NCBI RefSeq assembly: GCF_030013595.1
Contig: NZ_CP122768.1
Length of the DNA stretch: 64,000 bases
Reading direction: 5' to 3' (one strand)
Source of the DNA: Escherichia coli
Lineage (GTDB): Bacteria; Pseudomonadota; Gammaproteobacteria; Enterobacterales; Enterobacteriaceae
Position numbers and translations under genes: made by a program
Shown here: positions 5,637 to 59,883 of the stretch, piece after piece
Layout of the letters: every line of letters starts with the position of its first letter
How positions within the stretch are numbered: the first letter of the stretch is position 1
The notes under the pieces: model-generated
Databases searched by the model: none
Told to the model about the DNA's origin: nothing
Seen by the model: only the letters and a program-made list of their open reading frames with translations

Positions 5637-5643
5637 TCCATTC

Positions 5644-5669
5644 AGCGCTCCTGCGGGAGCGCTTTTTTG
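5644..5669 (+). terminator. dsbB intrinsic terminator
   Basis: AGCGCTCCtgcGGGAGCGCT hairpin followed by TTTTTT immediately after dsbB stop. Confidence 0.65.
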
Positions 5670-6379
5670 TGCACAGAAAACCCCCAGCTAGGCTGGGGGT
5701 TCCGGAAAGCTTTCAGCTTTGAGCCAGTTATTAAAACCCCTTTTGATTTGTTAAAACACCTTGCGGTCTGGCAACTGCAAGTGTCAAACAAGAAATCAAA
5801 AGGGGGTCCCAATGGGGGACGAAAAGAGCTTAGCGCACACCCGCTGGAACTGTAAATATCACATAGTTTTTGCGCCGAAATACCGAAGACTGGCGTTTTA
5901 CGGAGAGAAGCGTAGGGCGATAGGCAGTATTTTGAGAAAGCTGTGTGAGTGGAAAAGCGTACGGATTCTGGAAGCAGAGTGCTGCGCAGATCATATCCAT
6001 ATGCTTGTGGAAATCCCACCCAAAATGAGCGTATCCGGCTTTATGGGATATCTGAAAGGGAAAAGCAGTCTGATGCTTTACGAGCAGTTTGGGGATTTGA
6101 AATTCAAATACAGAAACAGGGAGTTCTGGTGCCGAGGGTACTATGTCGATACGGTGGGTAAGAACACGGCGAAGATACAGGACTACATAAAGCACCAGCT
6201 TGAAGAGGATAAAATGGGGGAGCAGTTATCGATTCCATATCCGGGCAGCCCGTTTACGGGCCGTAAGTAACGAAGTTGAATGCAAATGTCAGATCGTATG
6301 CGCCTGTTAGGGCGCGGCTGGTAACAGAGCCTTACAGGCGCATTTGAAAAACCTCCGGCTATGCCGGAGGATATTTATT
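5664..6379 (+). mobile_element. IS200-family insertion sequence, copy A (about 716 bp)
   Basis: Boundaries defined by where this copy and the inverted copy at 30331-31046 stop matching; contains Y1 transposase gene and terminal hairpin CCCCCAGCtaGGCTGGGGG; starts right after the dsbB terminator T-run. Confidence 0.78.
5812..6270 (+). CDS. tnpA: IS200 Y1 (HUH) transposase TnpA
   Basis: MGDEKSLAHTRWNCKYHIVFAPKYRR...CCADHIHMLVEIPPKMSVSGFMGYLKGKSS...YRNREFWCRGYYVDTVGKN; HxH motif and catalytic Tyr region typical of IS200 TnpA (152 aa). Confidence 0.88.
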   Translation: MGDEKSLAHTRWNCKYHIVFAPKYRRLAFYGEKRRAIGSILRKLCEWKSVRILEAECCADHIHMLVEIPPKMSVSGFMGYLKGKSSLMLYEQFGDLKFKYRNREFWCRGYYVDTVGKNTAKIQDYIKHQLEEDKMGEQLSIPYPGSPFTGRK

Positions 6380-26167: not shown

Positions 26168-26480
26168 GCTACGCCTCTGTTAAAAATGTTAATCAATGTT
26201 AAGTGAGGTAACAATAGCAAACTTGTACGAAATATGTGTACAGAATGATAAGTTAATTTTTTGCATTTAGTGCTAATACATATATAACAACAGGTTATGA
26301 TAAAAAATATTGCATCATTTAAATGACAACCTATACAAGAATTTTCGCCAACTCATCTTCAACTTTTTCCATTTTTTATCAATGTAAAGAAACAGTTATG
26401 TTTTGGTATTAAAAGAAAGACACCGGAAGATATGTCTGTTACCGTCTTACTCTCGCCTCTCCCATAACCCTGGACAGTTA

Positions 26481-27692
26481 ATGCTTACCACCCTTATTTA
26501 TCGTAGCCATATACGTGACGACGAACCTGTCAAAAAAATCGAAGAAATGGTTTCGATAGCAAATCGCAGGAACATGCAGTCTGACGTAACAGGGATCTTA
26601 CTGTTTAATGGTTCTCATTTTTTCCAGCTTCTGGAAGGTCCGGAAGAACAGGTTAAAATGATATATCGGGCTATATGCCAGGATCCACGGCACTATAATA
26701 TTGTTGAGCTGCTGTGCGATTACGCGCCTGCTCGCCGTTTTGGCAAAGCGGGAATGGAATTATTTGATTTGCGCCTGCACGAGCGAGATGACGTTTTACA
26801 GGCCGTATTCGACAAAGGCACATCAAAATTTCAGCTAACTTATGATGACAGAGCGCTACAATTTTTTCGTACTTTTGTCCTTGCAACCGAACAAGCAACC
26901 TATTTCGAGATCCCTGCCGAAGACTCCTGGCTTTTTATCGCTGACGGATCTGATAAAGAACTTGATTCCTGTACCCTTTCACCAACTATAAACGACCACT
27001 TTGCCTTTCATCCTATTGTCGATCCCTTATCGCGGCGGATAATCGCTTTTGAAGCCATTGTGCAAAAAAATGAAGACAGCCCGTCAGCTATAGCGGTTGG
27101 GCAGCGTAAAGAAGGGGAAATCTATACAGCGGATCTCAAAAGTAAGGCGCTTGCATTCGCGATGGCACACGCACTTGACCTCGGTGATAAAATGATTTCA
27201 ATCAATCTATTACCTATGACCCTGGTTAACGAACCTGACGCAGTCTCTTTTTTACTTGATGAAATAAAGGCCAATGCTCTGGTGCCTGAACAAATCATCG
27301 TTGAATTTACTGAAAGTGAAGTCATATCTCGGTTTGATGAGTTTGCAGAAGCGATTAAATCGCTTAAGGCTGCCGGTATCAGTGTAGCAATTGATCATTT
27401 TGGCGCAGGTTTTGCCGGTTTGTTACTCCTGTCACGCTTCCAGCCTGACAGAATTAAAATCAGTCAGGAATTGATTACCAATGTTCATAAAAGCGGGCCA
27501 CGGCAGGCAATTATTCAAGCGATCATAAAATGCTGTACATCACTTGAAATTCAAGTCAGTGCTATGGGCGTGGCAACACCAGAAGAGTGGATGTGGCTTG
27601 AATCCGCAGGAATTGAGATGTTTCAGGGAGATCTGTTTGCTAAAGCTAAATTGAATGGTATCCCTTCAGTTGCGTGGCCAGAGAAAAAATAA
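26481..27692 (+). CDS. bluF: Blue-light sensor BluF (YcgF), BLUF + degenerate EAL domain
   Basis: ORF trimmed to ATG 26481: MLTTLIYRSHIRDDEPVKKIEEMVSIANRRNMQSDVTGILLFNGSHFFQLLEGPEEQV..., 403 aa. Confidence 0.88.
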   Translation: MLTTLIYRSHIRDDEPVKKIEEMVSIANRRNMQSDVTGILLFNGSHFFQLLEGPEEQVKMIYRAICQDPRHYNIVELLCDYAPARRFGKAGMELFDLRLHERDDVLQAVFDKGTSKFQLTYDDRALQFFRTFVLATEQATYFEIPAEDSWLFIADGSDKELDSCTLSPTINDHFAFHPIVDPLSRRIIAFEAIVQKNEDSPSAIAVGQRKEGEIYTADLKSKALAFAMAHALDLGDKMISINLLPMTLVNEPDAVSFLLDEIKANALVPEQIIVEFTESEVISRFDEFAEAIKSLKAAGISVAIDHFGAGFAGLLLLSRFQPDRIKISQELITNVHKSGPRQAIIQAIIKCCTSLEIQVSAMGVATPEEWMWLESAGIEMFQGDLFAKAKLNGIPSVAWPEKK

Positions 27693-27896: not shown

Positions 27897-28628
27897 GTGG
27901 CTTATTACAGCATTGGTGATGTTGCTGAACGTTGCGGGATTAATCCTGTCACTCTCCGGGCCTGGCAACGCCGCTACGGTTTGTTAAAACCACAGCGCAG
28001 TGAAGGCGGACACCGACTCTTTGATGAAGAAGACATACAACGCATCGAAGAGATCAAGCGTTGGATAAGTAATGGCGTCCCTGTAGGCAAAGTTAAAGCA
28101 TTACTGGAAACCACCAGCCAGGATACGGAAGATGACTGGAGCCGCCTGCAAGAAGAGATGATGTCAATTCTTCGTATGGCTAATCCTGCCAAACTACGCG
28201 CGAGAATTATTTCACTGGGTCGAGAGTACCCAGTAGATCAATTGATTAATCATGTTTACCTTCCTGTTCGCCAGCGTCTCGTGCTTGATCACAACACCTC
28301 CCGCATTATGAGCAGTATGTTTGACGGCGCATTAATTGAATACGCAGCAGCCTCGCTTTTCGAAATGCGCCGTAAGCCCGGTAAAGAAGCCATTCTGATG
28401 GCGTGGAATGTTGAAGAGAGAGCACGATTGTGGCTGGAAGCATGGCGTTTATCATTGTCAGGATGGCACATTTCTGTTCTTGCTGATCCCATTGAAGCGC
28501 CGCGCCCGGAACTGTTCCCAACGCAAACATTGATTGTCTGGACAGGCATGGCACCAACGAGAAGGCAAAACGAACTTTTACAACACTGGGGTGAGCAAGG
28601 TTATAAAGTCATCTTTCATGCCCCCTAA
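27897..28628 (+). CDS. bluR: MerR-family repressor BluR (YcgE)
   Basis: 243-aa [59 protein letters not shown]..., MerR HTH. Confidence 0.88.
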
Positions 28629-28848: not shown

Positions 28849-29253
28849 ATGGATCAGGTTGTTGTTTTTCAAAAGATGTTTGAGCAAGTGAGAAAAGAGC
28901 AAAACTTCTCCTGGTTTTATTCAGAATTAAAACATCACCGTATTGCACATTACATTTATTATCTGGCTACGGATAACATCAGAATTATTACTCACGATGA
29001 CACGGTTTTGTTATTAAGAGGAACCAGGAACCTGTTAAAAGTTAGTACGACCAAGAACCCTGCTAAAATAAAAGAGGCCGCATTGCTTCATATTTGCGGA
29101 AAATCAACATTTCGGGAATACTGTTCAACACTGGCAGACGCGGGCGTTTTCCGGTGGGTTACTGATGTTAATCATAACAAACGCAGTTACTACGCCATTG
29201 ATAATACGCTTTTATATATTGAAGATGTAGAAAATAATAAACCATTAATCTAG
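28849..29253 (+). CDS. ycgX: Protein YcgX (DUF1398-like)
   Basis: 134-aa ORF MDQVVVFQKMFEQVRKEQNFSWFYSELKHHRIAHYIYYLATDNIRIITHDD...; position between bluR and iraM. Confidence 0.75.
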   Translation: MDQVVVFQKMFEQVRKEQNFSWFYSELKHHRIAHYIYYLATDNIRIITHDDTVLLLRGTRNLLKVSTTKNPAKIKEAALLHICGKSTFREYCSTLADAGVFRWVTDVNHNKRSYYAIDNTLLYIEDVENNKPLI

Positions 29254-29462
29254 CTAAAGTTGGATGCTTAAAAAATGCTTCATAATTCAGTAAGGCATTA
29301 GCATAATGGAAATAAAAGTGCAGAGACTATTCATATGGATGAGTAATACTATCTTTTTATTGCCACCCATAAATAATCACCAGATCAATACTATCAACTT
29401 GATATTTGAAATGTGATCACTTGACTTTTGATACGTTATTTTATAGCGGTTAACATATTTAT

Positions 29463-29513
29463 AAAAAACAACGGGCGTGCCATACGCCCGTTTCAATACT
29501 TAACGCACATGTG
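29463..29513. repeat. Third, diverged copy of the icd 3'-end/terminator (att-associated) element
   Basis: aaaaACAACGGGCGTGccATACGCCCGTTTCAATAcTTAACgcACATGTg aligns with 31042-31090 and 58582-58630 (icd terminator hairpin plus last icd codons). Confidence 0.7.
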
Positions 29514-29958
29514 TTTTGGTTTAGTCATCATCCGGTTATATGTATTTTAGCCAGGAATGGGTTAAACCATTCCTATATAACTAAAAAATTGAAACCTTAT
29601 TCTCATGTCATGCTTATATTCGTCATTATCGTTATATAAAAAGGCCAACCATAATGTTTAGCAAATTGGCACAAAGTAGTATAAAGGCTATGTTTTAATT
29701 ACAGGATGTTCAGTCATTTGAATGTATAACATTTTAGCTAAACAAATCTAAAACGAAGTGAATAATTTAATGTTTTCACTAAATCTCATTTTGTTTAATA
29801 TCTATTGAGATTTCTTGCTTTAAATTTTGTTTTATATAAACAATGGTTTTAATTTTTAATTAATTTGTTTTTTTGAGAGGGTAATATACTCATATGCAAA
29901 ATCAAGAAATAAACATCCTAATGAACCATATTAAATACCGTGGGATAAGACATAACAA

Positions 29959-30282
29959 ATGAAGTGGATAGTAATTGACACGGTAATTCAACCTACATGC
30001 GGCATATCTTTTTCAGCCATATGGGGTGATATGAAAATGATCATCTGGTATCAATCTACTATATTTCTCCCTCCTGGAAGTATATTTACACCGGTTAAGT
30101 CTGGTATTATCCTTAAGGATAAAGAATACCCTATTACTATTTATAACATCACACCATTCAACAAGGATTTATGGAGTTTACTCAAAAGCAGTCAAGAGTG
30201 TCCTCCAGGAGAAAGCGAAATAACAAATAAATGTTTACATAATAGTTGTATTATAAAAATATGCCCATATGGACTCAAGTAA
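29959..30282 (+). CDS. iraM: Anti-adaptor protein IraM (stabilises RpoS)
   Basis: 107-aa [65 protein letters not shown]..., AT-rich context. Confidence 0.88.
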
Positions 30283-30330
30283 TGGTCTTCATATAAATAT
30301 TCTCGACATGATATTAATAATATCCACATA

Positions 30331-31046
30331 AATAAATATCCTCCGGCATAGCCGGAGGTTTTTCAAATGCGCCTGTAAGGCTCTGTTACCAGCCGCGCCC
30401 TAACAGGCGCATACGATCTGACATTTGCATTCAACTTCGTTACTTACGGCCCGTAAACGGGCTGCCCGGATATGGAATCGATAACTGCTCCCCCATTTTA
30501 TCCTCTTCAAGCTGGTGCTTTATGTAGTCCTGTATCTTCGCCGTGTTCTTACCCACCGTATCGACATAGTACCCTCGGCACCAGAACTCCCTGTTTCTGT
30601 ATTTGAATTTCAAATCCCCAAACTGCTCGTAAAGCATCAGACTGCTTTTCCCTTTCAGATATCCCATAAAGCCGGATACGCTCATTTTGGGTGGGATTTC
30701 CACAAGCATATGGATATGATCTGCGCAGCACTCTGCTTCCAGAATCCGTACGCTTTTCCACTCACACAGCTTTCTCAAAATACTGCCTATCGCCCTACGC
30801 TTCTCTCCGTAAAACGCCAGTCTTCGGTATTTCGGCGCAAAAACTATGTGATATTTACAGTTCCAGCGGGTGTGCGCTAAGCTCTTTTCGTCCCCCATTG
30901 GGACCCCCTTTTGATTTCTTGTTTGACACTTGCAGTTGCCAGACCGCAAGGTGTTTTAACAAATCAAAAGGGGTTTTAATAACTGGCTCAAAGCTGAAAG
31001 CTTTCCGGAACCCCCAGCCTAGCTGGGGGTTTTCTGTGCACAAAAA
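30331..31046 (-). mobile_element. IS200-family insertion sequence, copy B (inverted relative to copy A)
   Basis: Reverse complement of 30331-31046 matches 5664-6379 essentially base for base; encodes an identical TnpA; one end abuts the icdC terminator hairpin. Confidence 0.8.
30440..30898 (-). CDS. tnpA: IS200 Y1 transposase TnpA (second copy)
   Basis: Protein identical to the ORF at 5812..6270. Confidence 0.88.
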   Translation of the reverse strand: MGDEKSLAHTRWNCKYHIVFAPKYRRLAFYGEKRRAIGSILRKLCEWKSVRILEAECCADHIHMLVEIPPKMSVSGFMGYLKGKSSLMLYEQFGDLKFKYRNREFWCRGYYVDTVGKNTAKIQDYIKHQLEEDKMGEQLSIPYPGSPFTGRK

Positions 31047-31093
31047 CAACGGGCGTGTTATACGCCCGTTTCAATATTTAACACATGTAGAGA

Positions 31094-31257
31094 TTACATG
31101 TTCTTGATGATCGCATCACCAAACTCGCTACATTTCAGCAATTTAGCGCCTTCCATCAGACGTTCGAAGTCATAGGTTACGGTCTTGGCGTTGATTGCGC
31201 CTTCCATACCTTTAACAATCAGGTCTGCGGCTTCAGTCCAGCCCATATGGCGTAACA
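31094..31257 (-). pseudogene. icdC: icdC: displaced chromosomal 3' fragment of icd (last ~53 codons), left by prophage integration
   Basis: 31094-31254 aligns with the 3' end of intact icd (58633-58796) with scattered substitutions; similarity stops near 31255; preceded by the same terminator hairpin (31048-31070). Confidence 0.85.
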
Positions 31258-31767
31258 GTATATAAAAACATTAAGTTCAATTCATTGATATTTAATGATA
31301 AAAATTATTTTATTGTCTTTTTATTAGCCAAAATCAACTTTATTCAACCGTTTGATTTCATTGACGTTCGTTTTTATTTTGGGGAAAGGTTTTCTCTACC
31401 ATTTATATCCAAATTACAAGTCTACATTTTATTAACATCTCAATACATGTGAGGCCTTGCAGACCTTTGTGAGACCTTATGTGTCTCTGTTTTGTCCCAC
31501 CTTGTATTACGACTTGCATAGCCAATGAAGATAAATGTGACGACAAACGGCGCGGCAGTCTTCTTTTCCTTCATACTTTCCCCACCCAGCATGCATACCT
31601 TTATGCCATAACTGAAGTTTATGTCTGTTATGAGCGATGAGCGGAAGTTCACTACTTCATGACTAACATTGAAGTGTCCTAAGCAACGGGGAGCAGCTCA
31701 AGGAGTGTGTTAGTGCAATTACACTAACACAGCTACTAAAAATAAAAATACCAAAACTACAGTTATT

Positions 31768-32883
31768 CTATGCGCCTGGATTGGGTTCGATCATACTCAG
31801 CGTTTTTGCTATTTTCTTAATCTCATCATCATTATCCAAAAAAGAGGCGTCTTTTATTACCACAGTACGCTCTTCTTGTAATAGCTCACCTATTTTTTCT
31901 TCTATAAAATCTAAGGTTGGCATTATAATCTGGATGTCTCGAGAAAAAGTAGTTTTTGCATCTTCTATACTGTTGAATCCATTATGTATATGAGTGAATA
32001 TTCTCTTTTTAAACTGTATGTCTTCTGGATTTCCCACTAACTGACTGAAATCTCCTTTCATAACTCTTTCGCTTGTTTCAAAGAGCTGTATTGCTATCGA
32101 GTCGATTAATTCCTTTTTGGACAGAGATGCTTGTTCATAAAATTTGGTGACTAACTCTGTTGGTAACTTTCTTGAGACGACTTTAATGGACAGTCTCTGA
32201 AATAGGTAAGGTGCCACCACGCCCACACTGAAAGGGTGAATCCTCCCTGGATTTAATAATTTTATTGTGACGTTTTCAAAAACTAGCTCATTGATTTTAC
32301 TATTTATGAATTCCATTAAATACTTATCTAATGATAATGTTACCGACGCAACCGCTTCTATCACTTGTTTAAATGGCTCGCCTTTCAAGGATTTAAAAAA
32401 CTCTTTGTTATAACCAAAGAAATCCACAAAACCTAAATTTATTCGATTTTCTTCTTTAGTATTTGAAATGCGAATTTGAAGTTGTTTTAAGTCTTCATCG
32501 GTCAAGTATTTTAAACCATAGTCATCAAGCGCGTTACGTATAACTTTATCTGCAGATTCTAAGTCGATTACAGTTTTTACATTAAAAAACAATGATAACA
32601 ATGAATCATACTTATGAACTCGCAAGGTTAAATCTGTTGCATTTGATGCGGTTACATTTATACGTCTCAAAAGATCAATAACTTTACTAATTGGTAGGCT
32701 GTTTTCAAAAATTTTGAATGACTCGTATTCAGATACAACATCTTTTATATACTTACTGATAGTATGAGACTTTATTTCCACCTCAACTTCGGTTGAGTAA
32801 GAATGAATTAGTGAGTTTGTAGTTTCAGCGATGTCATTTGATACATACAACTTATATTCGAAACAATCAGGAGCGGGAAGCAA
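31768..32883 (-). CDS. Continuation reading frame of the Mrr-like gene (about 370 codons, unknown function); no independent start, probably joined by a frameshift
   Basis: Open for 371 codons in AT-rich DNA but first in-frame ATG is about 190 codons in; no SD before the TTG at 32883; overlaps upstream ORF by 76 nt in a different frame. Confidence 0.5.
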   Translation of the reverse strand: MLPAPDCFEYKLYVSNDIAETTNSLIHSYSTEVEVEIKSHTISKYIKDVVSEYESFKIFENSLPISKVIDLLRRINVTASNATDLTLRVHKYDSLLSLFFNVKTVIDLESADKVIRNALDDYGLKYLTDEDLKQLQIRISNTKEENRINLGFVDFFGYNKEFFKSLKGEPFKQVIEAVASVTLSLDKYLMEFINSKINELVFENVTIKLLNPGRIHPFSVGVVAPYLFQRLSIKVVSRKLPTELVTKFYEQASLSKKELIDSIAIQLFETSERVMKGDFSQLVGNPEDIQFKKRIFTHIHNGFNSIEDAKTTFSRDIQIIMPTLDFIEEKIGELLQEERTVVIKDASFLDNDDEIKKIAKTLSMIEPNPGA

Positions 32884-33233
32884 CTATTATCAATAATGGA
32901 AAACAATAAAAATTTAATTATTTCTCTTAATGCTTGCGGTCTAGTTATTCTACCTTGCATTTTTTTACATTGTATTAAACCACTTACAACACCGTTATGG
33001 TATAGCACGCAGTCGCGTCCTCTTTCAGAAACTCCTTGCATTAAAGATATTGAGGATATATTTTTATGCTTTCCATCTTCAATTTCGTTCTTTACTAACA
33101 AATAACATAGCAACTCAAATTCTCGATCACCTAATTCTGAAAAGGGAAGCAATCCGATACCAGAATCTATAGTCCATGGTCTATATCCTGATTGAGCCTC
33201 GATATTAATTTGTTCGTCACTGATTTTTTTCAC
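32808..33233 (-). CDS. Mrr-like PD-(D/E)xK restriction-endonuclease catalytic domain protein (N-terminal part of a probably longer gene)
   Basis: GTG start at 33233 with strong SD (AAGGAGatttaaGTG); translation ...LGDREFELLCYLLVKNEIEDGKHKNISSISLMQGVSERGRDCVLYHNGVVSGLIQCKKMQGRITRPQALREII fits the Mrr_cat pattern (FExL..LL, GxD, QxK, later R). Confidence 0.6.
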   Translation of the reverse strand: MKKISDEQINIEAQSGYRPWTIDSGIGLLPFSELGDREFELLCYLLVKNEIEDGKHKNISSISLMQGVSERGRDCVLYHNGVVSGLIQCKKMQGRITRPQALREIIKFLLFSIIDNSCFPLLIVSNISCMYQMTSLKLQTH

Positions 33234-56246: not shown

Positions 56247-57575
56247 CTGATGAATCCCCTAATGATTTTGGTAAAAATCATTAAGTTAAGGTGGATACAC
56301 ATCTTGTCATATGATCAAATGGTTTCGCGAAAAATCAATAATCAGACAACAAGATGTGCGAACTCGATATTTTACACGACTCTCTTTACCAATTCTGCCC
56401 CGAATTACACTTAAAACGACTCAACAGCTTAACGTTGGCTTGCCACGCATTACTTGACTGTAAAACTCTCACTCTTACCGAACTTGGCCGTAACCTGCCA
56501 ACCAAAGCGAGAACAAAACATAACATCAAACGAATCGACCGATTGTTAGGTAATCGTCACCTCCACAAAGAGCGACTCGCTGTATACCGTTGGCATGCTA
56601 GCTTTATCTGTTCGGGCAATACGATGCCCATTGTACTTGTTGACTGGTCTGATATTCGTGAGCAAAAACGACTTATGGTATTGCGAGCTTCAGTCGCACT
56701 ACACGGTCGTTCTGTTACTCTTTATGAGAAAGCGTTCCCGCTTTCAGAGCAATGTTCAAAGAAAGCTCATGACCAATTTCTAGCCGACCTTGCGAGCATT
56801 CTACCGAGTAACACCACACCGCTCATTGTCAGTGATGCTGGCTTTAAAGTGCCATGGTATAAATCCGTTGAGAAGCTGGGTTGGTACTGGTTAAGTCGAG
56901 TAAGAGGAAAAGTACAATATGCAGACCTAGGAGCGGAAAACTGGAAACCTATCAGCAACTTACATGATATGTCATCTAGTCACTCAAAGACTTTAGGCTA
57001 TAAGAGGCTGACTAAAAGCAATCCAATCTCATGCCAAATTCTATTGTATAAATCTCGCTCTAAAGGCCGAAAAAATCAGCGCTCGACACGGACTCATTGT
57101 CACCACCCGTCACCTAAAATCTACTCAGCGTCGGCAAAGGAGCCATGGGTTCTAGCAACTAACTTACCTGTTGAAATTCGAACACCCAAACAACTTGTTA
57201 ATATCTATTCGAAGCGAATGCAGATTGAAGAAACCTTCCGAGACTTGAAAAGTCCTGCCTACGGACTAGGCCTACGCCATAGCCGAACGAGCAGCTCAGA
57301 GCGTTTTGATATCATGCTGCTAATCGCCCTGATGCTTCAACTAACATGTTGGCTTGCGGGCGTTCATGCTCAGAAACAAGGTTGGGACAAGCACTTCCAG
57401 GCTAACACAGTCAGAAATCGAAACGTACTCTCAACAGTTCGCTTAGGCATGGAAGTTTTGCGGCATTCTGGCTACACAATAACAAGGGAAGACTTACTCG
57501 TGGCTGCAACCCTACTAGCTCAAAATTTATTCACACATGGTTACGCTTTGGGGAAATTATGAGGGGATCTCTCAG
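56247..57575 (+). mobile_element. IS10 (1329 bp, complete), no flanking 9-bp target duplication
   Basis: Outside end CTGATGAATCCCCTAATGATTTTGGTAAAAATCATTAAG at 56247, inside end ...TTATGAGGGGATCTCTCAG at 57575; flanks ggttcaaca / tattaagcg differ. Confidence 0.9.
56354..57562 (+). CDS. IS10 transposase
   Basis: 402-aa ORF MCELDILHDSLYQFCPELHLKRLNSLTLACHALLDCKTLTLTELGRNLPTKARTKHNIKRIDRLLGNRHLHKE... recognised as IS10 Tnp. Confidence 0.92.
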   Translation: MCELDILHDSLYQFCPELHLKRLNSLTLACHALLDCKTLTLTELGRNLPTKARTKHNIKRIDRLLGNRHLHKERLAVYRWHASFICSGNTMPIVLVDWSDIREQKRLMVLRASVALHGRSVTLYEKAFPLSEQCSKKAHDQFLADLASILPSNTTPLIVSDAGFKVPWYKSVEKLGWYWLSRVRGKVQYADLGAENWKPISNLHDMSSSHSKTLGYKRLTKSNPISCQILLYKSRSKGRKNQRSTRTHCHHPSPKIYSASAKEPWVLATNLPVEIRTPKQLVNIYSKRMQIEETFRDLKSPAYGLGLRHSRTSSSERFDIMLLIALMLQLTCWLAGVHAQKQGWDKHFQANTVRNRNVLSTVRLGMEVLRHSGYTITREDLLVAATLLAQNLFTHGYALGKL

Positions 57576-57604: not shown

Positions 57605-58519
57605 ATGAAAGGCAGGCGCTCAGACATTACGGTGACAGAATGGCTTGATAAATATATTTCTATCCAGGAGGACAGGCTGCAACATAATGAACTAAGACCC
57701 AACTCCTATCGGCAAAAAGGCAAACCCATTCGTCTTTTCCGTGAGCATTGTGGAATGCAACACCTCAAGGATATTACCGCACTTGATATTGCCGAAATAA
57801 TTGATGCTGTAAAGGCTGAAGGTCATAACAGGATGGCGCAAGTCGTGAGAATGGTGTTGATCGACGTCTTCAAAGAAGCACAACACGCAGGACATGTTCC
57901 GCCAGGATTTAACCCAGCGCAGGCAACAAAACAACCGCGAAATCGAGTAAACCGCCAAAGATTGTCACTGCCCGAATGGCAGGCAATATTTGAAAGCGTA
58001 AGCAGACGGCAGCCCTATTTAAAATGCGGCATGCTACTTGCTCTTGTTACTGGACAACGTTTAGGCGATATCTGCAATTTGAAATTCTCTGATATATGGG
58101 ACGACATGTTGCACATTACTCAGGAAAAAACCGGTTCAAAACTTGCTATTCCGCTTAACCTGAAATGCGATGCTCTGAATATTACCCTTCGTGAAGTTAT
58201 ATCTCAGTGCAGGGATGCTGTTGTTAGTAAATATCTGGTCCATTACCGTCACACTACCTCTCAAGCAAACAGAGGAGACCAGGTTTCTGCAAATACTCTG
58301 ACAACGGCTTTTAAAAAGGCCCGGGAAAAATGTGGCATAAAATGGGAGCAAGGAACTGCGCCCACATTTCATGAGCAGCGATCTCTGTCAGAACGGTTAT
58401 ATCGGGAACAGGGTCTGGATACGCAAAAGTTGTTAGGCCATAAATCCAGAAAAATGACCGACCGATACAATGATGATCGTGGTAAAGACTGGATTATCGT
58501 AGATATCAAAACAGCATAG
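57605..58519 (+). CDS. Phage tyrosine integrase (lambda Int-like), apparently lacking the N-terminal arm-binding domain
   Basis: 304-aa ORF; ...LLALVTGQRLGDICNLKFSDI...GTAPTFHEQRSLSERLYREQ...LLGHKSRKMTDRYNDD (R...HxxR...Y catalytic signature); aligns to lambda Int from about residue 60 onward. Confidence 0.8.
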   Translation: MKGRRSDITVTEWLDKYISIQEDRLQHNELRPNSYRQKGKPIRLFREHCGMQHLKDITALDIAEIIDAVKAEGHNRMAQVVRMVLIDVFKEAQHAGHVPPGFNPAQATKQPRNRVNRQRLSLPEWQAIFESVSRRQPYLKCGMLLALVTGQRLGDICNLKFSDIWDDMLHITQEKTGSKLAIPLNLKCDALNITLREVISQCRDAVVSKYLVHYRHTTSQANRGDQVSANTLTTAFKKAREKCGIKWEQGTAPTFHEQRSLSERLYREQGLDTQKLLGHKSRKMTDRYNDDRGKDWIIVDIKTA

Positions 58520-58581
58520 AAAATAGCCAGTTTTGGGGAAGGGTTTTGGGGAAAGTTTTGGGGAAGATTTTACATCATCAT

Positions 58582-58609
58582 AAAACAACGGGCGTGTTAT
58601 ACGCCCGTT
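58582..58609 (-). terminator. icd intrinsic terminator (phage-supplied copy)
   Basis: Minus strand: AACGGGCGTATAACACGCCCGTT followed by gtttt, 24 nt after icd stop. Confidence 0.65.
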
Positions 58610-58632
58610 TCAATATTTAACACATGTAGAGA

Positions 58633-59883
58633 TTACATGTTCTTGATGATTGCATCACCAAACTCGCTGCATTTCAGCAGTTTAGCACCTTCCATCAGAC
58701 GTTCGAAGTCATAGGTTACGGTCTTGGCGTTGATTGCGCCTTCCATACCTTTAACAATCAAGTCTGCGGCTTCAGTCCAGCCCATATGGCGCAGCATCAT
58801 CTCAGCGGAGAGAATAATAGAGCCTGGGTTTACTTTGTCCTGACCGGCATATTTCGGCGCAGTACCGTGGGTGGCTTCAAACAGGGCGCATTCGTCACCG
58901 ATGTTTGCGCCTGGGGCGATACCGATACCGCCGACCTGTGCAGCCAGAGCGTCAGAAATGTAGTCACCGTTCAGGTTCATACAGGCGATAACATCATATT
59001 CAGCCGGACGCAGCAGGATCTGTTGCAGGAATGCGTCAGCAATCACGTCTTTAATGACGATCTCTTTGCCGGTATTCGGGTTTTTAACTTTCAGCCACGG
59101 GCCGCCGTCGATCAGTTCACCGCCAAACTCTTCACGCGCCAGCTGGTAGCCCCAGTCTTTAAACGCGCCTTCGGTGAACTTCATGATGTTGCCTTTGTGC
59201 ACCAGGGTCACAGAGTCACGATCGTTAGCAATTGCGTATTCGATCGCTGCACGAACCAGACGTTTGGTGCCTTCTTCCGAACACGGCTTAATACCGATAC
59301 CGCAATGTTCCGGGAAGCGAATTTTCTTCACGCCCATCTCTTCACGCAGGAATTTAATCACTTTCTCGGCGTCGGCAGAGTCAGCTTTCCATTCGATACC
59401 CGCATAAATGTCTTCCGAGTTTTCACGGAAGATAACCATATCGGTCAGTTCAGGGTGTTTAACCGGGCTTGGAGTGCCCTGATAGTAACGTACCGGACGC
59501 AGGCAGATGTAGAGATCCAGTTCCTGACGCAGGGCAACGTTCAGAGAGCGAATACCGCCACCAACCGGAGTGGTCAGCGGACCTTTAATGGCAACGCGAT
59601 ATTCACGAATCAGATCAAGGGTTTCAGCAGGCAGCCAGACATCCTGACCATAAACCTGTGTGGATTTTTCACCGGTGTAAATTTCCATCCAGGAGATTTT
59701 ACGCTCGCCTTTATAGGCTTTCTCGACTGCAGCGTCGACCACTTTCAGCATGGCTGGGGTTACATCTACACCGATTCCATCACCTTCAATGTAAGGGATA
59801 ATCGGATTTTCAGGAACGTTGAGTTTGCCGTTTTGCAGGGTGATCTTCTTGCCTTGTGCCGGAACAACTACTTTACTTTCCAT
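58633..59883 (-). CDS. icd: Isocitrate dehydrogenase (NADP), 3' end supplied by prophage
   Basis: 416-aa [76 protein letters not shown]... Confidence 0.95.

Follow-up and report, generated by a model that had tools for sequence, protein, structure and literature searches.

Results

The icd terminator occurs three times in the window

We analyzed a window of 64,000 nucleotides (nt) from the Escherichia coli contig NZ_CP122768.1, which is oriented opposite to the K-12 map and contains the 3' end of icd, the isocitrate dehydrogenase gene, together with a series of copies of its terminator. The intact icd coding sequence (58633-59883, minus strand) is now served by a phage-supplied terminator and spacer, here called copy C (58582-58627, minus strand), beyond which extends the current icd-integrated prophage (31253-58581). 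On the far side of the prophage lie icdC, a displaced icd 3' fragment comprising the last 52 codons and the stop (31094-31252, minus strand), and, attached to this fragment, a second terminator with spacer, copy B (31043-31088, minus strand). Next come a secondary insertion of the insertion sequence (IS) IS200C (711 bp, 30331-31041, minus strand) and an 818-nt mini-island (29513-30330, plus strand), delimited as the unit that is absent from empty-site genomes. It carries iraM (29959-30282, plus strand), which encodes a 107-amino-acid RssB anti-adaptor of the Pfam family PF11183. The subject of this report is a displaced third copy of the icd terminator, copy A (29463-29512, minus strand), which is located between ycgX and iraM and was recognized by BLAST, shuffled controls and a terminator scan. 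Copies A and B have the same orientation and bracket positions 29513-31042, and we propose that the iraM segment between them is the remnant of an island older than the current prophage.

A BLAST search with the intact icd 3' region as query and the 64-kb window as target matched positions 29465-29512 with 89.6% identity over 48 nt (three mismatches and one gap, E=6e-12); no further terminator copies were found in the window by this search, the next match having an E value of 0.13. A 40-nt pattern allowing up to three mismatches occurs at exactly three sites in the window (0/100 dinucleotide-preserving shuffles). The element common to all three copies consists of an A-run, a perfect 9-bp stem with a 5-nt loop and a 20-nt spacer leading to CACATGT. 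In copy A, the stem arms are found at 29470-29478 and 29484-29492 and enclose the loop GCCAT; compared with copy B, copy A has CC instead of TT in the loop, one T-to-C change and one inserted G. As the non-structural 20-nt spacer matches as well, copy A is more than a generic hairpin.

A sequence-only reading of this stretch had postulated a diverged third copy of the icd terminator between ycgX and iraM, with iraM and IS200 enclosed by copies A and B, and both points are borne out by these data. It had also assigned adjacent icd codons to the repeated intervals, which is incorrect: none are present there, the icd stop codons being located at 31094-31096 and 58633-58635, 5 nt past the end of the element. 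The sequence that follows copy A on its right showed no significant resemblance to icd codons (p=0.24-0.89).

One could argue that the likeness of copy A to the icd terminator is a coincidence between GC-rich intrinsic terminators, given that the stem is a simple 9-bp GC-rich palindrome and that the region is rich in terminator-like sites (7 versus 1.3 expected). Such a coincidence would have to account for a 48-nt match that runs through the spacer, for the result of the shuffles and for the lack of a fourth copy in 64 kb, and it is further contradicted by two comparative results described below, namely that the ancestral icd flank has its ortholog on one side of copy A and that the orthologous copy in a 6.2 kb variant of the locus runs into the icd stop and codons. 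On these sequence grounds we regard coincidence as effectively refuted, with a residual probability close to nil.

Distribution in E. coli and the ancestral arrangement

Among 5,426 complete E. coli genomes, 3,935 carry the iraM coding sequence, 3,876 carry copy A together with its right flank, and 3,882 contain the 818-nt block between the repeats at a coverage of at least 80%. A precise empty site with one terminator and no iraM was found in 1,104 genomes; here, the left flank of copy A runs straight into the single terminator and icd. Examples are APEC O1, ATCC 11775, Nissle 1917 and ST131 strains, all of which we take to belong to phylogroup B2; as used here for the empty site, the label B2 is based on these named strains. 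The disrupted iraM junctions that we examined among the discrepant cases proved to be IS insertions (IS200, IS1 or ISEc20). Across E. coli, the ycgX-icd interval has the structure expected from the sequence-only reading: iraM is nearly always accompanied by the repeat, the iraM block sits exactly between two terminator copies, and empty sites have one. Eight iraM matches in this survey were on records classed as plasmids.

In a terminator-stem scan using one genome per species, a single terminator directly after icd was observed in Citrobacter braakii, C. amalonaticus, Citrobacter sp. Cu233, E. whittamii and Escherichia sp. E1V33, and neither iraM nor ycgX was found within the retrieved flanks of these five outgroups (~0.7 kb to ~9 kb). 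The Citrobacter sequence of 57 nt distal to the terminator resembles the left flank of copy A (0/500 shuffles) and shows no homology to that of copy B (p ~0.9); the match to E. coli is significant only in Citrobacter sp. Cu233, C. braakii and one metagenome-assembled genome. By this similarity, positions 29414-29469 of the window (~57 nt including the A-run) correspond to the ancestral distal flank of the icd terminator. The ancestral order, as read from the aligned sequences, is distal flank, one terminator, spacer and icd, and the single-terminator outgroups together with the flank homology imply that the iraM block and the extra terminator are an insertion. The loop type of copy A (CC) was not encountered as a natural icd terminator allele among the species representatives.

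Beyond the terminator and the short distal flank, the DNA differs between lineages (L011-L015), with yeeN-like and YkgJ-like genes in Escherichia sp. E1V33, an IS and large uncharacterized open reading frames (ORFs) in Citrobacter sp. Cu233, and ycgX and bluRF in E. coli. The position just distal to the flank seems to be another hot spot at which variable DNA accumulates.

A 6.2 kb variant of the island at the same site

An IraM homologue with 73% identity to the window protein led us to 19 E. coli genomes (e.g., NZ_CP098223.1) in which the ycgX-icd interval at the same site is 6.2 kb long. Following ycgX, this interval contains a flank corresponding to that of copy A, a terminator (A') that continues into the icd stop and ~5 codons, and ~230 nt of further sequence. 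These are followed by a homologue of the iraM upstream region, a gene of the ymgB/ariR family and an iraM homologue (iraM') with its own hairpin terminator, and then by a 75-amino-acid ORF, trkG, IS remnants and a 455-amino-acid ORF. The interval is closed by the Citrobacter-like 57-nt flank with a second terminator (B'), to which icd is joined. The repeat of this variant is longer than that of the window (70 nt, 81% identity, E=6e-15), its outer copy including the icd stop and ~5 codons.

Both ends of the small block can be aligned with the large form. At the right end, homology to the large form extends through the 48 nt that follow iraM as far as the A-run (…CCAAAAAC), past which the large form continues with iraM's own terminator and the small form with the terminator of copy B. 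In sequence terms, this switch fits the trace expected of a deletion between two A-runs. At the left end, homology to the large form resumes at GTTTTGG (29513), and the icd stub and the ~230 nt are missing. In addition, copies A and A' have a derived base in common (ATACTT versus ATATTT). In the most economical reading of these alignments, the 0.82 kb block was derived by deletion from a large island of this kind, for which the 6.2 kb variant is the natural intermediate form. Two large-variant genomes gave a truncated match without the A' region; in the one examined, EC42405, a 435-nt deletion removed A'.

The postulate that the third copy is the scar of an earlier insertion thus agrees with three lines of evidence, i.e., the empty-site alleles, the single-terminator outgroups and the fuller repeats of the 6.2 kb variant. 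The second part of that postulate, that the iraM segment is itself a remnant island of low GC content, is likewise supported by the empty sites, the 6.2 kb variant and the base composition of the block (see below).

When the window is compared with the large-island genomes, identity is 93-100% as far as ~29000 inside ycgX, drops sharply there to 80-88% and falls further to 45-70% in the intergenic flank (L042, 8270-8950). The drop in mid-gene indicates that ycgX is mosaic and that the divergent block begins inside ycgX, not at the terminator repeat. The large-variant haplotype may have been imported from a distant lineage.

The polarity of the B2 empty site was approached in two ways, the first of which, a flank tree, is star-like. 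The second was a search for A/B chimeric terminators at empty sites, none of which were found in the 5,426 genomes; a crossover in the first 16 nt would still be compatible with this result. The lack of chimeras argues mildly against loss of the island in B2, and the deep divergence of the small and large forms hints that the insertion is old and was secondarily lost in B2.

The iraM block and its phage-borne relatives

The block comprises the iraM upstream region, ymgK (29654-29698), iraM and 48 nt of 3' flank; both of its ends are homologous to the 6.2 kb variant, and its GC content is 29.3% compared with 48.3% for the window. Most IraM homologues, at 57-73% protein identity, are morons of lambdoid and Stx prophages. 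We examined the contexts of seven groups of IraM homologues. In five of the seven, the gene is located in lambdoid prophages, including Stx2 phages and an E. albertii prophage, as an antisense moron between Q (or stx) and the lysis genes. One group is the 6.2 kb island at the icd site itself, and the remaining one (P0013) adjoins IS21-type transposase genes, with no phage genes called nearby. Together with trkG and the IS remnants of the large variant and the low GC content, the phage-borne relatives of IraM identify the cargo as being of phage or mobile type.

Homology to the phage copies of iraM is confined to the coding sequence. When a phage collection was searched for the iraM upstream region and the island ends, the matches were confined to the iraM coding sequence (~72%) and the terminator element. 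The icd terminator is also part of the attachment region of phage 21 and of many lambda-like phages. In IMG/VR, the matches to the A-type terminator proved to be prophage predictions overrunning the host flank.

In some Stx lambdoid prophages, the lysis cassette is flanked by a DUF1398 gene on one side and an iraM-like gene on the other, both on the same strand (L047, 2236-5673; L048, 537-3975). Their order and orientation match those of ycgX, itself a member of the DUF1398 family, and iraM relative to icd, and ycgX may be a prophage relic too, of the same or an older layer.

Copy A as a relic or a working terminator

Copies A and B were compared in 11 iraM-bearing genomes from several lineages, and the single terminator copy of five iraM-less genomes was included. 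Every copy A shows the same four differences from copy B. Copy B, or the single copy, retains a perfect stem in all genomes compared (-15.3 kcal/mol or better). The copy A hairpin of the window has a predicted stability of -15.3 kcal/mol, and stem-breaking changes are present in the K-12 type (-10.2 kcal/mol) and the O103 type (-9.9 kcal/mol); in LR-62-2, the A-run of copy A is interrupted.

It is conceivable that copy A has been kept as a functional terminator or insulator that shields the PhoP-controlled iraM promoter from ycgX-ymgL or antisense transcripts. In favor of such a role, copy A sits ~50 nt past ymgL, its hairpin is intact at -15.3 kcal/mol in the window and in several lineages, and it is kept in ~98% of iraM-bearing genomes. 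However, copy A passes the terminator scan on the minus strand only (9-bp stem with six GC pairs, 5-nt loop, tail GTTTTTTATA), and there is no minus-strand gene upstream of it; on the plus strand, the sense strand of ycgX and ymgL, it fails the scan, with TTTCAATA coming after the hairpin. Furthermore, the K-12 and O103 lineages have fixed substitutions that disrupt the stem, copy B is undamaged in the genomes examined, IS200 and IS1 have inserted at or in copy A without apparent penalty, and A' is deleted in EC42405, with a second large-variant genome giving the same truncated match. We therefore consider a retained function very unlikely. Copy A is probably a fossil junction, i.e., an att-like scar (att, phage attachment site), and not a working part.

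The two longest stretches of uninterrupted identity between copies A and B measure 16 and 17 nt. Efficient RecA-dependent recombination usually needs roughly 25 nt of identity, hence the loss of iraM by recombination between the repeats should be rare today.

Copy B lies ~50 nt past iraM in genomes without a prophage in icd, and there it is the working icd terminator. In strain 7/2, the loop of copy B is inverted from GTTAT to ATAAC with the stem unchanged (L027, 1506-1528, corresponding to 31048-31070 of the window), which looks like a template-switch flip within the hairpin.

IS200 insertions at terminators

IS200C contains tnpA (30440-30898) and the 5' untranslated-region RNA STnc490 (30908-31031, Rfam match), and it is 100% identical to a second copy in the window at 5664-6379. 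An IS-free allele is present in the near-identical strain 7/2, and elsewhere IS200 is found beside copy A (including outside it), beside both copies or beside a single terminator (SCU-102, L004; ETEC1748, L009; GPEC657, L003), indicating that IS200 arrived later and independently and does not belong to the island. Both IS200 copies of the window lie flush with the A-run side of an intrinsic terminator hairpin, one at copy B and the other at AAAAAAGCGCTCCCGCAGGAGCGCT (~5640-5664), which suggests a target preference of IS200 for terminator ends. The IS200 junctions at copies A and B are not reconcilable with a single simple insertion model.

In ETEC1748 (L009), two directly repeated IS200 copies flank copy A and iraM. 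Recombination between them would yield the order found in GPEC657 (ycgX, IS200, terminator, icd, no iraM) and would represent a second route of iraM loss. The flanks of ETEC1748 and GPEC657 are not closely related, and the two strains are not ancestor and descendant.

The current icd prophage and the genes distal to the island

The prophage now residing in icd is bounded by a 210-nt att repeat (31043-31252 versus 58582-58791, 97.6% identity by BLAST) and is the youngest layer at icd. icdC is its outer att, and equivalent loci are annotated elsewhere as partial isocitrate dehydrogenase. The integrase of this prophage (57605-58519, 304 amino acids) has an apparently truncated N terminus, with an IS10-type transposase gene (56354-57562) directly upstream; truncation of the integrase by IS10 probably renders the prophage excision-incompetent. 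The motif GTTTTGGGGAA is repeated just within both prophage ends (58536-58575 and 31377-31393), with three tandem copies adjoining copy C, and these motifs may be arm-type binding sites for the integrase. The flank of this prophage also adjoins icd in E. albertii (L010). At its distal end, beside icdC, the prophage contains AT-rich ORFs of 371 and 141 amino acids (31768-33233, minus strand).

Distal to the island and to its bracket lies ycgX (28849-29253, plus strand; located from the ORF list and RefSeq annotation of matching loci), which is found in genomes with and without iraM. It is followed by the small ORF ymgL (36 codons, 29306-29416, plus strand), assigned by homology and annotated in matching loci, the coordinates being transferred from strain 7/2, which is identical to the window there. 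Further outward are bluR (27897-28628) and bluF (26403-27692), both on the plus strand.

Discussion

The comparisons presented here suggest a history in which the iraM block would be what remains of an integrated element. At the start, the icd 3' end would have received an element of 6 kb or more, most likely a lambdoid prophage or a related integrative element, which carried iraM and, judging from the surviving large variant, a ymgB-like gene, trkG and the 455-amino-acid ORF. The element would have supplied a replacement icd 3' end, terminator and distal flank, which became copy B when joined to icd, and the resident terminator would have been displaced outward beside ycgX as copy A. Deletions would then have cut the element to 0.82 kb. 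On the right, the 3' flank of iraM would have been fused at the A-run to the terminator of copy B, which would now serve both convergent genes; the left end would have lost ~230 nt along with the displaced icd stub, leaving the terminator and the 20-nt spacer. Copy A, being needless, would have drifted, a later prophage in icd would have given rise to icdC and copy C, and IS200 would have inserted flush with copy B. Because no integrase survives, we infer the integrase-mediated insertion and the label att from structure, and in the same way the assignment of copy A as the resident copy and of copy B as the imported one, as well as the order and timing of the deletions.

The same arrangement might have arisen by recombination with DNA of a related species in which the island already adjoined icd, its terminator and flank. 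One homologous crossover in icd and one illegitimate crossover near the recipient's icd 3' end would then have left the recipient's terminator as copy A. The inner copy of the large variant carries the Citrobacter-like 57-nt flank, which is more reminiscent of captured chromosomal DNA than of a phage arm, the ycgX breakpoint and the divergent icd of the large haplotype show homologous import at this locus, and no integrase is present. On the other hand, the site is a proven target of integrases (phage 21, e14-type elements and lambdoid prophages, including the window's own), and direct repeats of the target 3' end around phage-type cargo are the classic signature of integration. Moreover, an illegitimate crossover that exactly duplicates the terminator is less likely than an attP carrying this segment. 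An origin by recombination thus appears unlikely to us, and we favor integration of an element at the icd 3' end followed by its reduction.

Several observations weigh against this favored history. Neither the 0.82 kb version nor the one of 6.2 kb contains an integrase, an excisionase or a recognizable phage structural gene, and searches of phages and IMG/VR returned no intact element with iraM-type cargo beside an icd-type attP. For the 455-amino-acid ORF, no relatives were found in IMG/VR, and its PHROG matches were weak and of unknown function. The repeat of the window ends 5 nt before the icd stop, and the crossover region of the e14/phage 21 type, which extends ~160 nt into icd, is absent from copy A; the longer icd remnant of the large variant is marginal (p=0.013-0.10, depending on the scoring scheme). 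The large haplotype is also very divergent from roughly mid-ycgX onward, with identities of 98.5% for bluR, 80-88% for the 3' half of ycgX and 80% (nucleotides) for iraM, and the two forms of the island could be independent integrations of related elements. Finally, the four differences common to all copies A are all towards G/C or an inserted G, unlike usual neutral decay, and part of copy A could thus be foreign.

A broader version of this history would make the icd 3' end a multi-layer accretion site, at which successive lambdoid prophages deposited several chromosomal regulators of stress and biofilm behavior, namely iraM, ycgX and perhaps ymgB/ariR-type genes, each being locked in by decay of its att sites below recombination length. 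iraM and ycgX would then be antisense morons that flanked the lysis cassette of one ancestral phage, their order and orientation being conserved in Stx phages of today, and B2 would have lost iraM by precise repeat-to-repeat deletion. We put this forward tentatively, as a scheme that is rather doubtful as a whole.

The findings correct the map of the locus, in that iraM is located neither on e14 nor in plain core chromosome, but in its own older, repeat-bracketed remnant. The island explains why iraM is cleanly present in some E. coli lineages and absent from others, and as iraM is RpoS-stabilizing, its presence or absence should affect responses to Mg starvation and stress. The locus also provides an example of domestication, with integration at a gene 3' end, deletion to one gene, capture of a host terminator and decay of the outer repeat, and the 6.2 kb variant in 19 genomes can be used for testing the proposed order of events. 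The relevance for E. coli genome evolution and RpoS control is moderate. In the searchable literature, which does not cover the older J. Bacteriol. papers on icd and e14, we found neither the third copy nor the large variant described.

The element e14, phage 21 and lambdoid prophages integrate at the icd 3' end and thereby create icdC (Hill et al. 1989, summarised in PMC6379469). In these integrations, the target is the same gene end, the incoming DNA supplies the 3' end and terminator, and the resident sequence, now one half of a direct repeat, is pushed to the distal side. The youngest layer of the window (31043-31252 versus 58582-58791) corresponds exactly to such a process. iraM is described as variably present and has been placed on the e14 prophage (PMC4045071). 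Contrary to this placement, iraM lies outside the attR of e14. The bracket around it differs from the e14 type in that the common part consists of the terminator and the 20-nt spacer (48 nt) instead of ~160 nt of icd codons, in that it has no integrase and in that its cargo amounts to 0.82 kb.

At tRNA and tmRNA att sites, genomic islands accrete in tandem, with several att repeats in series. The icd locus is similar in that successive elements have used one site, each leaving a direct repeat, with the older layers outward and decaying and three copies in series. It differs from them in its target, which is a protein-coding gene's terminator region, and in that the older layer has been cut to one domesticated regulator gene.

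With the IraL and IraM-like morons of lambdoid and Stx prophages (PMC4045071), iraM of the window shares the PF11183 family, 57-73% identity and the character of AT-rich accessory cargo. Those morons are located between Q/stx and the lysis genes, whereas iraM stands alone beside icd, and the homology is limited to the coding sequence. The cryptic prophage Rac carries trkG, and a trkG-type gene is also present in the large variant of the island. As in cryptic or "grounded" prophages such as Rac (PMC6379469), progressive deletion has left useful cargo, although the reduction is far more extreme here, with no phage genes left. Altogether, the iraM bracket is another degenerate island between att-like repeats at a known hot spot of phage integration and, as such, unsurprising in kind.

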